Assembly: GCA_000146465.1 (NCBI GenBank) | Contig: CP001945.1 | Length of the DNA: 64,000 nt | Strand: one strand, 5' to 3' | Shown here: positions 1 to 45,258 of the stretch, in pieces | Position numbering within the stretch: position 1 is the stretch's first letter | Layout: every line of letters begins with the position of its first letter | Program-made: the position numbers and the translations under genes | The notes under the pieces: generated by a model | What the model saw: only the letters and a program-made list of their open reading frames with translations | What the model was told of the DNA's origin: nothing | Database searches by the model: none

Positions 1-2490
<2,490 letters not shown>

Positions 2491-2519
2491 AAAAAAATTC
2501 CCCCCAATCTCTCAAATAC

Positions 2520-3811
2520 TGATCCTGCTGCTGGTTCTCCAACAGCAGCCATGTTACGACTTATATCTTATCTAACACGAAGGACTCAGACCTTCCAATC
2601 TTCGTCCACTGCGTCATCTTAGATAGCGACGGGCGGTGTGTACAAAGGACAGGGACCCATTCAAAACAACTTGTTCAATCGTTATTACTAGGAATTCCAC
2701 GTTCAGAAGCCCATTACACAGCTTCATCCCTCACAGCAGGCTCCCTCGCCATCTATCGTAGTGCGCGTGCCGCCCGCTTCATCTCAGGGCATAACGGACC
2801 TGTTCTGTTCCATTCCTCCCTTGCCCCAAAGAGCACTGTCAAAGGGTCTCACATCTTACGCAACTTAATCCAAAGCTCACGCCATCCATTTCAAACGGCC
2901 ATGCACCACCGCCGCGCGCATCCCGTCCTCGTTCTCCTGCCCGCTTCAGAACCGGTAAGTTGCCCCGCGTTGAGTCAAATTAAGCCGCACACTCCACTCC
3001 TTGTGGTGTCCTTCCGTCAATCTCTTCAAGTTTCACTCTTGCGAGCATACTATCCCCAGAACCCACATACTCAAGATTTCTCATGCACAACACTATATAG
3101 TCCCGTCCAGTCGGCATCGTTTACTGCTAGAACTAAAACGGTATCTAATCGATTTCGATCCTCTAGCCTTCGTCCTTCATCGTCACATAAGTCCAAGAGC
3201 ACAGCCTTCGCTTCTGTCCGTCCAGTCAGGGTCTTCGTATTTCACCCCTCGCCCAACTATCCGGTGCCCCTCGTCCTCTGCCAAACCTCTTACATCCACA
3301 TCAGGACATAATCCCCCAAACAAAGACATACAAAAGACTACGGACTTTTTAACTGCAGCATTCACCATAGACACTATTGGAGCAGGTATTACCGCGGCTG
3401 CTGGCACCCGACTTGCCCTCCAATCAATCTCGACTCCTTTACACTCGAAAAAAACTCACTTCTCATAACCGCCTCCCCAAAGGATTAGGCAAGTTTCGCG
3501 CCTGCTGCCATCCTTGGACGTAGTAGCCATCTCTCAGGCTCCCTCTCCGGAATCAAACCCCGATCCCCCGTCTCCCGTCTCCGCCTAGTTAGGCCATTAC
3601 CCTAACTACCAGCTGATAGGCCTACAACTTACTTGGCTCGTGTCAAAAACACTCCTAGCCCCCTACCTGCAGTTTCCCGCAGTTACAGCTCTCCCGCCAA
3701 CCAAATCATCGTACTATCACTGAGCCGTCCGTCAATCCCCCACAAGGTTCATCAACATGCATGGCTTAGTACCAGAGAATAGCAACCACGTCAGGCAGAA
3801 TCAACCTGGTG
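2520..3811 (-). rRNA. SSU rRNA, complete, about 1292 nt (microsporidian-sized 16S-like)
   Basis: The 5' end CACCAGGTTGATTCTGCCTGAC is the reverse complement of 3790-3811. The 530-loop GGTGCCAGCAGCCGCGGTAAT is the reverse complement of 3385-3405. CCTTTGTACACACCGCCCGTC is the reverse complement of 2629-2649. The 3' end ...AACCAGCAGCAGGATCA ends at 2520. A short ITS (about 2491-2519) follows before the LSU. Confidence 0.9.
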
Positions 3812-3821
3812 CTACCCCCCA

Positions 3822-5003
3822 TCAAAAATCTCTCAGATCCCTCATCAACAAACCCCTGGCCACAGCCACATCAAATCCCAAAAAATCCTCCATCCCCACC
3901 GTCGAACACAAATCTCTCTCAGAGGAGACCAAAACTAATCCAAAACCACTCTCTTTTCCCCTACTTCTTCTCTTTTCCTCTTCCTCTTCTCTTATAAGCT
4001 CCTCGGAATACCTTTCAGATTCTGCTTTCCTTTCTATTTCTTCTATTCTTCTTCTCTTTTCCTCTCTTTCTATGATTCTATCAGCACAAAATTCCGAATC
4101 ATCTTTATGTTCCAAGAATACCTCTTTAACTAGTTCTGCTGCTACTTCTATTCCATATTTGTTGTATACATATATCAGAGAATCATGACTTAAATAGCCA
4201 AGTAACACAATATCACTCCCTTCACGTTTTTTCATGGGACCATCCCCTAAACTAAATTCTATTTTGTCAGAGTATAATCTGTTTAAGCGCATCTTCAGAA
4301 TGAAATGTTCTCTATTCTCTTTTTTTTCCCAAAGATACACACATGCATCATGTACTATATTAAATGCCGAAATCATTAAATTCTGTTGCTCTTTAGTGAG
4401 AATAAGTTTGGCATACTTCTTGACTATCTCTAATTTTTTCTTTTCCTTTTCTTTTTCTTCTTCCGAAGAAGAAGGATCCTTATTTAATTTTTTCGTTTCT
4501 GTTTCTACTTTATCGATAAGACGATTTCCAAATTCATTAAGTAAATGGATGTTCTCCCATGTTATTTTCTTTAATATGAATCCTAGGGTAACTCCTTTGG
4601 ATTTCTCTTTTTTCTTCTTATAAATATCAATCGAATTAAAATATCGGGTCTTATCGCTTTCAATCAAAACTTCTTTAGCTATCTCGCTGTAAACCCATTT
4701 TTTATAAGGAGAAATAGCTACAGGTCCCATACAATCGAATATCAATGAACAAAATCCCATAATAACATCTTCTACATATTCTTTTTCTGTTTCCTTTATT
4801 TCGTCGTACCTTGTTGAAGGAGATGCTATAACTAAGCCATTACGAAACACGAATGGATAAAATATTAATTTGCGATAGTTACCCTCGCATAAGAAACTCT
4901 TCACTGGATTTCTTTTTCTCTCTATGTCTGTTGACGGCCCACTTTCCGAACCACGTAACACATTTAGCAGAGCAAGAAACTTTATTAGCAACATCCTTGC
5001 CAT
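3822..5003 (-). CDS. Hypothetical lineage-specific protein with an N-terminal signal-peptide-like segment and a K/E/R-rich charged C-terminal half. The 3' third overlaps the purine-rich tract immediately upstream of the SSU 5' end.
   Basis: The track ORF 3822-5006 starts on TTG; the first ATG is at 5003 (MARMLLIKFLALLNVL...). No recognisable domain. The C-terminal 60 aa are encoded by a GA-rich stretch that abuts the rRNA start, so the true stop may lie earlier or the ORF may be spurious. Confidence 0.35.
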   Translation of the reverse strand: MARMLLIKFLALLNVLRGSESGPSTDIERKRNPVKSFLCEGNYRKLIFYPFVFRNGLVIASPSTRYDEIKETEKEYVEDVIMGFCSLIFDCMGPVAISPYKKWVYSEIAKEVLIESDKTRYFNSIDIYKKKKEKSKGVTLGFILKKITWENIHLLNEFGNRLIDKVETETKKLNKDPSSSEEEKEKEKKKLEIVKKYAKLILTKEQQNLMISAFNIVHDACVYLWEKKENREHFILKMRLNRLYSDKIEFSLGDGPMKKREGSDIVLLGYLSHDSLIYVYNKYGIEVAAELVKEVFLEHKDDSEFCADRIIEREEKRRRIEEIERKAESERYSEELIREEEEEKRRSRGKESGFGLVLVSSERDLCSTVGMEDFLGFDVAVARGLLMRDLRDF

Positions 5004-5369
5004 CAAAAGGAAACTTCCAATCTGAACTTATAATGTCATCATCCCTTTTACCTTTATAAGGATTCAATCATTAATAAAAATATCGATTCTGATAAGTTCC
5101 TGAAACCACTGTTGGTCAGATAAGGAATATCTCTTGTCAGTCACAGGTAATTACTTCCGCTTACTAATTCTTCTCACTATCCCAAAAAATAAAATAAGAA
5201 TCTTTAGTGTTGTTTGTTATCCATTCCATCTCATATCCCATAAACAGATGTCCCGAACCCAAATCCAGGCACGGTACGAGATGGAACAAGGCGATTCCTT
5301 CCTCTGAATTATGATTCGAGGTCTTTACCCATTACCTAATCACAAAAAATTAGAATTTATTAGGAACCA

Positions 5370-9791: not shown

Positions 9792-10265
9792 ATGCACGGC
9801 AAAAATAAAGGAATCGCAATATCAAATATACATCCAAGAATAAGGCTGAAGGACATAATAGATATATTCTCCGTCTTTGGAAATGTAATTGGATTCCAAG
9901 TACTCAAGGAAGGATTTGCTTTGAAGTTTGAATCGTTTCCCGAGAAATCTTTATCCATGGACAATTTTCCTTTGGTGCACAAAAGAATGAAGGTTAGGCT
10001 TATTGAATTGGCTGATGACTACGATACCTTCCAAAGGGGGACCGTTGTTATGTTTAACCCTTCTTTAGATGTAGACGAAATAAGAGATGAGTGCTGTATG
10101 TTTGGTTGTGTAACCGAGGTGATAAGAAAGCAGAATGGAATATATGTTATTTGTAGTTCGGAAGCTGATGGGGAGAGTATATTTATGAACATGTATGGAA
10201 GATACTACAACAAAGAAAGAATAAGATGCTGGATAACTGACGAAAAAAGCCTATTGGGAGAATAA
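9792..10265 (+). CDS. RRM-domain protein with a C-terminal UHM-like motif (U2AF65/PUF60/SPF45-like splicing-factor architecture)
   Basis: An RNP-like KGIAISNI...GFALKFES fold, followed by a C-terminal ...NMYGRYYNKERIRCWITD matching the UHM R-X-F pocket motif. The track ORF starts on TTG at 9648. ATG candidates are 9678 and 9792; 9792 is preferred because it is preceded by CCC. Confidence 0.55.
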   Translation: MHGKNKGIAISNIHPRIRLKDIIDIFSVFGNVIGFQVLKEGFALKFESFPEKSLSMDNFPLVHKRMKVRLIELADDYDTFQRGTVVMFNPSLDVDEIRDECCMFGCVTEVIRKQNGIYVICSSEADGESIFMNMYGRYYNKERIRCWITDEKSLLGE

Positions 10266-45081: not shown

Positions 45082-45196
45082 CGAATTTATAGCCCCCGTA
45101 GCTCAGTCGGTTAGAGCGTGGTACTTATATGCTGGAAAGCTGTGCAATACTTGGTTTATACTGCTAAGATATGCCAAGGCCGCGGGTTCGAGTCCC
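45082..45196 (+). tRNA. tRNA-Ile (anticodon TAT) with a 41-nt intron at the canonical 37/38 position
   Basis: 5' exon GCCCCCGTAGCTCAGTCGGTTAGAGCGTGGTACTTATA, intron 45120-45160, 3' exon ATGCCAAGGCCGCGGGTTCGAGTCCCGCTGGGGGCA. Anticodon stem TGGTA/TGCCA, loop CTTATA|A. Eukaryotic tRNA-Ile(UAU) genes characteristically carry an intron. TTTT follows at 45200. Confidence 0.85.
45120..45160 (+). other. tRNA intron (41 nt) within tRNA-Ile(TAT)
   Basis: Inserted 1 nt 3' of the anticodon. Removing it restores the anticodon stem pairing. Confidence 0.8.
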
Positions 45197-45258
45197 GCTG
45201 GGGGCAGTTCTTTTCTTCTAATATTCTATAGTTTCTTTTAATTCCTTTGGCTTTCTTC

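Follow-up and report, generated by a model that had tools for sequence, protein, structure and literature searches.

Does a protein-coding gene really run directly into the promoter region of a ribosomal RNA unit? The question is raised by an open reading frame (ORF) in a 64,000-nucleotide stretch of contig CP001945.1 (GenBank assembly GCA_000146465.1), referred to here as the window, which is the rDNA-bearing end of chromosome IV of Encephalitozoon intestinalis ATCC 50506 in the 2010 assembly. The source was recognized from the ORF product, which is 100% identical to the uncharacterized protein Eint_040030 (RefSeq/UniProt XP_003072656.1, E0S6G1). The ORF lies on the minus strand and extends from an ATG at 5003 (or a TTG at 5006) to a TGA at 3824-3822, giving 393 codons counted from the ATG. 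Its stop codon is separated from the 5' end of the small-subunit (SSU) rRNA gene, at 3811 on the same strand, by exactly 10 nt (TGGGGGGTAG). The positions given in an earlier note on this DNA are correct. The features of the region are collected in Table 1.

We compared the window by blastn with the telomere-to-telomere (T2T) assembly of the same strain (GCA_024399295.1), in which chromosome IV is CP075161.1 (locus L008). Window positions 7000-3949 match T2T chromosome IV at 99.97% (L008 8004-11055), and the match stops inside a gene for a 604-aa protein with a DUF3654 and a DUF1609 domain. This 3,052-nt alignment contains a single mismatch, probably at 3952, just beyond the junction. Window positions 3967-3534 correspond to L008 21381-21815, beginning 157 bp ahead of the SSU gene. 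Both halves of the window are therefore found on one T2T molecule, in the same order and orientation, with about 10.3 kb between them; the DNA skipped in the window amounts to about 10.34 kb relative to T2T chromosome IV. This segment (L008 11056-21390) holds the DUF1609 half of the gene, three InterD (DUF2463) genes, one InterC (DUF1686) gene, and an ORF of 246 aa. About 3.2 kb of it is free of genes, C-poor (1 to 4% C), and G-rich, and contains tandem repeats. From that native rDNA upstream region of about 3.2 kb, the window retains 3812-3952 only. At the protein level, the first 350 residues of the ORF product are identical to the native 604-aa protein (P0004) and the divergence is complete thereafter: from aa 351, the window product reads ESGFGLVLVS... 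and the native protein GRGKAVENSG.... The ORF is thus a chimera of 350 true codons and 43 codons read from the rDNA 5' flank.

TABLE 1 Features at the gene-rDNA junction of the window, in order of position
Feature	Position	Strand	Evidence
LSU rRNA gene, subtelomeric rDNA unit	27..2407	-	Rfam RF02543, 1414 bits; 99.7% identity to T2T rDNA copies
SSU rRNA gene, microsporidian type, 5' end at 3811	2517..3811	-	Rfam RF02542, 1103 bits, model positions 1-1311
Proximal rDNA 5' flank, G+T-rich, ~7% C	3812..3952	-	Four T2T rDNA flanks (L001, L002, L007, L008), one substitution at 3904
Spurious C-terminal tail of the ORF, aa 351-393 plus stop	3822..3953	-	Derived from rDNA flank; identity to 604-aa protein stops after aa 350
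Junction microhomology GAAAAG, assignable to either parent (InterAE/B gene or rDNA flank)	3953..3958	-	Three-way alignment
True coding part, codons 1-350 of a 604-codon InterAE/InterB (DUF3654+DUF1609) gene	3954..5003	-	Match to T2T chromosome IV
Purine-rich segment, E/K/R-rich interdomain linker, aa 300-350	3954..4106	-	79% purine; aligned with P0002 and P0003 linkers
DUF3654 domain, aa 178-301	4101..4472	-	Pfam PF12376, E=2.7e-23, above gathering score
Signal-peptide-like hydrophobic N-terminus, aa 1-22	4938..5003	-	Hydropathy
Conserved 5' upstream block with TATA-like motifs	5015..5141	-	80% identity to P0002 upstream region (L001, L002, L003)

The true part of the ORF belongs to a known family. 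InterAE/InterB proteins (UPF0329) are subtelomerically encoded and carry DUF3654 in the N-terminal and DUF1609 in the C-terminal region (PMC4704409; PMC10158259). They have been described as having an endoplasmic reticulum signal peptide and one N-terminal transmembrane segment (PMC4704409), and in the T2T paper both InterAE and InterB proteins were predicted to be globular (PMC10158259). The only other homologues of the ORF product are two E. intestinalis proteins of 585 to 606 aa with the DUF3654 and DUF1609 pair (P0002 and P0003), to which it is 34 to 40% identical. The presence of a Pfam domain and of homologues places the full ORF far above chance. Its N-terminus, MARMLLIKFLALLNVLRGSESG, is hydrophobic, with an 11-residue Kyte-Doolittle mean of up to 2.26, and the signal-peptide-like character that the earlier note had ascribed to it agrees with the published family trait (PMC4704409). 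Hydropathy peaks at aa 1-19 and at aa 80-98 (window 4710-4766), and these two peaks may correspond to the signal peptide and the one transmembrane segment of the published InterAE/InterB layout. The RefSeq model of Eint_040030 begins at the second ATG (MLLIKF..., 390 aa) and the T2T annotation at the first (MARMLL...; window 4992-5003, minus strand), a choice of start that alters the n-region of the putative signal peptide.

The native gene is a complete, ordinary member of this family. Its 604-aa product has DUF3654 at aa 178-301 and DUF1609 at aa 369-603 (Pfam, E=4.4e-59), and its order is a hydrophobic N-terminus, the aa 80-98 segment, a helical DUF3654, an E/K/R linker, and DUF1609. In both the window and T2T chromosome IV, the gene is subtelomeric, faces the telomere, and lies on the same strand as the SSU and LSU genes. 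The window copy resembles the InterAE/InterB family (Dia et al. 2007, 2016) in its DUF3654 domain, signal-like N-terminus, aa 80-98 segment, and E/K/R linker, as well as in its subtelomeric position, its telomere-facing direction (that of the rDNA), and an upstream block in common with its paralogues. It differs in that it lacks DUF1609 (PF07753), which was not found by Pfam in the window ORF, and carries 43 unrelated residues instead, whereas the native copy is a full member. As sequenced, the window copy is a truncated family member; the real gene is a full one.

The base composition of the 3' part of the ORF had led to the proposal that a GA tract at 3830-4100 encodes a poly-E/K/R sequence. 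This description holds for window 3956-4100, which is 79% purine and where E, K, and R make up 32 of the 51 residues of aa 300-350. It fails for 3812-3955, a stretch of 58% purine and 76% G+T whose product is a G/L/V/F/D-rich tail with zero lysine. The earlier note had also considered the whole GA-rich tract, from 3812 to about 4200, as the external transcribed spacer (ETS) or promoter of the rDNA unit, with the gene limited to about 4200-5003. This idea was right in one respect, as the last 141 to 147 nt ahead of the SSU gene, and with them the last 43 codons, do belong to the rDNA flank; it placed the boundary at about 4200 rather than about 3953, some 250 nt too far into the gene. Positions 3954-4200 are identical to the T2T gene and are conserved at the protein level with the paralogues, in the end of DUF3654 and in the EELIREEEEEKRR linker, and the native rDNA flank is G+T-rich, not GA-rich. 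In the alignment with P0002 and P0003, similarity persists through the purine-rich region, where EELIREEEEEKRR is invariant, and then ends. Since similarity to the paralogues runs through the tract, it is a real coding linker and not a spacer, and we consider the ETS or promoter reading of the whole tract very improbable.

The 43-residue tail has quite different properties. Neither a Pfam match nor a homologue was found for aa 351-393. Its coding region is identical, bar one substitution, to rDNA flanks on three other chromosomes. An open frame of this length is not exceptional: 7% of shuffles of the stretch were stop-free. In the native flank, the frame entered at the junction stays open for 66 codons, against 6 and 11 codons for the other two frames. 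A genuine alternative C terminus was therefore rejected as an explanation for the tail, which has no domain, equals the generic flank of other chromosomes, and lies in a frame open by chance.

At all four T2T ends examined, the native rDNA 5' flank upstream of the SSU gene is C-poor and free of genes for 2.8 to 3.2 kb; the first gene beyond it belongs to the InterD group and lies on the opposite strand. Comparison of this flank at other rDNA copies, which the earlier note had suggested, revealed no ORF abutting the SSU gene at any of these four native flanks. The earlier note had named such an absence as refuting its proposal, and by this standard a native fusion is refuted. Across four T2T chromosome ends, an identity of about 96% extends over 1.9 kb of the rDNA upstream region, and the 300 bp before the SSU gene are essentially identical among three aligned T2T flanks, with one 1-nt length difference in a G run. 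The native upstream regions of about 3 kb lie at L008 18313-21537 (T2T chromosome IV), L001 15397-18559, and L007 13955-16809. On the rRNA-sense strand they are G-rich and have 1 to 4% C, in agreement with the GT/AC strand bias reported in the T2T paper, and a perfect 25-bp tandem repeat (3.9 copies) is found at L008 20865-20962, along with 15-bp repeats. Like other subtelomeric Encephalitozoon rDNA units (Brugere et al. 2000; Mascarenhas dos Santos et al. 2023), the unit in the window has its LSU and SSU genes, in this order, at a chromosome end, transcription toward the telomere, an SSU-proximal flank common to chromosome ends, and C-poor, strongly strand-biased DNA. Unlike them, it has just about 147 bp of the upstream block of about 3 kb, and the window is without TAREs or telomere.

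A different kind of flank is found upstream of the protein-coding gene. The block at 5015-5141 is conserved with the regions upstream of P0002 and P0003, two genes that are not beside rDNA, and the gene probably has a Pol II promoter of its own there. Blocks of about 130 bp are located directly before the start codons of the three InterAE/B paralogues (window 5015-5141, minus strand; L001 9864-9989; L007 ~9864-9989) and contain TATAAAG-like and TATAAGTT-like motifs. They are about 80% identical between paralogues, versus 34 to 40% for the proteins, so that the flank is better conserved than the coding sequence.

These results bear on the most striking claim made for the locus, namely that a secreted, charged-repeat protein gene is stably and natively fused to the rRNA promoter region, ending 10 nt before the SSU gene and coupled in its transcription to Pol I. 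The ORF is indeed intact in the window and has the direction of the rDNA, and all interAE/interB genes face the telomere, as the rDNA does (PMC4704409). Against such a fusion, the long-read T2T assembly has the gene at full length, and 9,722 bp separate its stop codon from the SSU 5' end; five other genes and a repeat stretch of about 3.2 kb lie in this interval. The last 43 residues, without homologue or domain, are those of a generic rDNA flank, and the upstream block of the gene is common to paralogues located away from rDNA. Nothing supports a Pol I coupling of the gene, and we regard a native fusion as so improbable that it can be set aside. The abutment of gene and rDNA does not represent the native or consensus chromosome, and the last 43 codons are noncoding sequence, whether the join is an artefact or a rare allele. 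In biological terms little remains beyond an unexceptional gene from a known subtelomeric family, with nothing to link it to Pol I.

The two protein forms differ in their distribution. The full-length protein is recorded under four accessions; it occurs on four contigs, and a second assembly (GCA_051312795.1) is represented among them. In the cluster table, the chimeric protein occurs on one contig only (193,740 bp). Exact look-ups of the 390-aa and 393-aa chimeric products in public assemblies through a gene-position index were negative, a weak result, as most contigs are short. The Logan contig L006 stops short of the ORF and thus gives no information. The text of the T2T paper makes no mention of the gene-rDNA discrepancy on chromosome IV.

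To locate the junction, we performed a three-way alignment of the window, the T2T chromosome IV gene, and the T2T rDNA flanks. The window tracks the gene up to ...GTAGGGGAAAAG and then follows the rDNA flank from GAAAAGAGAGTGGTTTTGG..., so that its chimeric junction reads GAAGAAGTAGGGGAAAAGAGAGTGGTTTTGG. The exact 6-nt GAAAAG common to both parents sits inside about 19 nt of imperfect purine-rich similarity. The protein-level breakpoint, aa 350, is located in the interdomain linker, after DUF3654 (aa 178-301) and before DUF1609 (aa 369-603). A homologous join to an rDNA flank that carries an old InterB remnant was also considered and rejected, as the T2T flank above the junction is a G-rich repeat unlike the gene. 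Substitutions found only in the window, relative to all four T2T rDNA copies, are located at 3904, 3809, 3785, and 3771. They cluster close to the junction and to the SSU 5' end, a pattern that sequence derived from PCR and Sanger reads would be expected to show.

The history of the 2010 assembly provides a likely origin for the join. Corradi et al. 2010 used 31-bp Illumina reads assembled with Velvet at k=19, and closed chromosome ends by nested PCR with one primer in the LSU gene and the other in a core gene. Five ends were linked in this way: this end of chromosome 4, both ends of chromosome 1, and one end each of chromosomes 5 and 10 (PMC4355639). Because the end was closed by nested PCR, a PCR template switch is the likeliest explanation, and we conclude that the junction is probably an in vitro PCR chimera from the closure of this chromosome end. 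The true template between the LSU and core primers would have been about 14 kb or more and would have included about 3 kb of G-rich repeats, which would make it a poor PCR substrate. Extension may have halted within the purine-rich InterAE/InterB linker, leaving a product that ended in ...GGGGAAAAG. This unfinished product could then have annealed again at a similar motif, ...GGGGAGAAAAG, which lies 147 bp before an SSU gene; the SSU gene and its flank are present in 22 copies per genome. The resulting short recombinant of about 4 to 5 kb would have outcompeted the real product, and nested PCR would have enriched it further. The join resembles template-switch chimeras known from gap and end closure of short-read assemblies: within a stretch obtained by nested PCR, a short purine-rich microhomology links two sequences that are about 10 kb from each other in the genome. 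One of the parents is repeated 22 times, and the later assemblies lack the junction. Unlike in those cases, the in vitro origin is inferred here, and the 6 nt of exact homology are at the short end for the mechanism; the flanking purine-rich similarity adds to them. A de Bruijn misjoin by Velvet at k=19 was rejected as unlikely, since the exact overlap is just 6 nt.

The same product could also have come from a rare true deletion allele in the spore population used in 2010. In this case, a microhomology-mediated loss of about 10.3 kb would have taken out the gene's DUF1609 half together with the InterC and InterD genes and almost all of the rDNA upstream region, and the short allele would have been favoured by nested PCR. 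The parents are collinear, in the same orientation, and at the same chromosome end, as a simple deletion needs, and a 6-nt microhomology is typical for end-joining deletions. Indels of 3 to 10 kb between rDNA and core are known in E. cuniculi isolates (PMC4704409). The 2010 authors themselves raised this possibility, with the caution that subtelomeres may differ in length among the more than 500 million spores that had supplied their DNA (PMC4355639). Nevertheless, the full-length arrangement is found in two later assemblies, with an identical 604-aa protein under four accessions on four contigs, whereas the chimeric protein is known from a single contig. Moreover, the upstream block shows 96% conservation over 1.9 kb between chromosome ends, and a deletion would leave the rDNA unit just 147 bp of it; template switching yields the same product without the need for a rare allele. 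We therefore consider a deletion allele rather unlikely and a PCR template switch the likelier explanation, and we infer that the switch took place in vitro rather than in a rare genome among the spores. A deletion allele, if true, would be a natural experiment on the minimal 5' flank of a microsporidian rDNA unit and direct evidence for ongoing subtelomere erosion.

The join has consequences for the use of the 2010 sequence. Eint_040030 is a chimeric, truncated model whose final 43 residues are rDNA flank, and it should be flagged for curation. In 2010, the five PCR-linked ends were used to argue that E. intestinalis subtelomeres are 11 to 16 kb shorter than those of E. cuniculi, and the chromosome 4 end was among three direct comparisons in which E. 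intestinalis was found to be "missing 11-16 kb and 9-11 genes" (PMC4355639). About 10.3 kb of the chromosome IV "loss" is present in the T2T assembly, comprising an InterC gene, three InterD genes, one ORF, and half of an InterAE/B gene. The other four PCR-linked ends should be treated with caution and may merit the same comparison. For work on the subtelomere or the rDNA flank of chromosome IV, CP075161.1 is preferable to the 2010 assembly.

Several minor observations were made in the course of this analysis. At 3809, the window reads CACCAGGTTGATTCTGCCTGAC and the T2T copies read CATCAGG.... We take CACCAGGTTGATTCTGCCTGAC to be the sequence of the classic microsporidian V1 SSU primer, and its occurrence at this position suggests that the deposited record contains sequence from a primer or from PCR. 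Deeper in the rRNA genes, the window has five extra single nucleotides, at 3454, 2505, 2380, 2222, and 1662. Opposite the purine-rich region, the plus strand contains antisense ORFs of 62 to 143 aa (window 3757-4188, 3809-3997, and 4234-4623). Their products are S/L/F-rich and of low complexity, and they look like by-products of the strand bias rather than genes. Finally, Rfam places a tRNA at window 45092-45206 (plus strand) that spans 115 nt against a 71-position model and was not called by ARAGORN; it is probably the tRNA with a 42-nt intron listed for E. intestinalis in Table 1 of Corradi et al. 2010.
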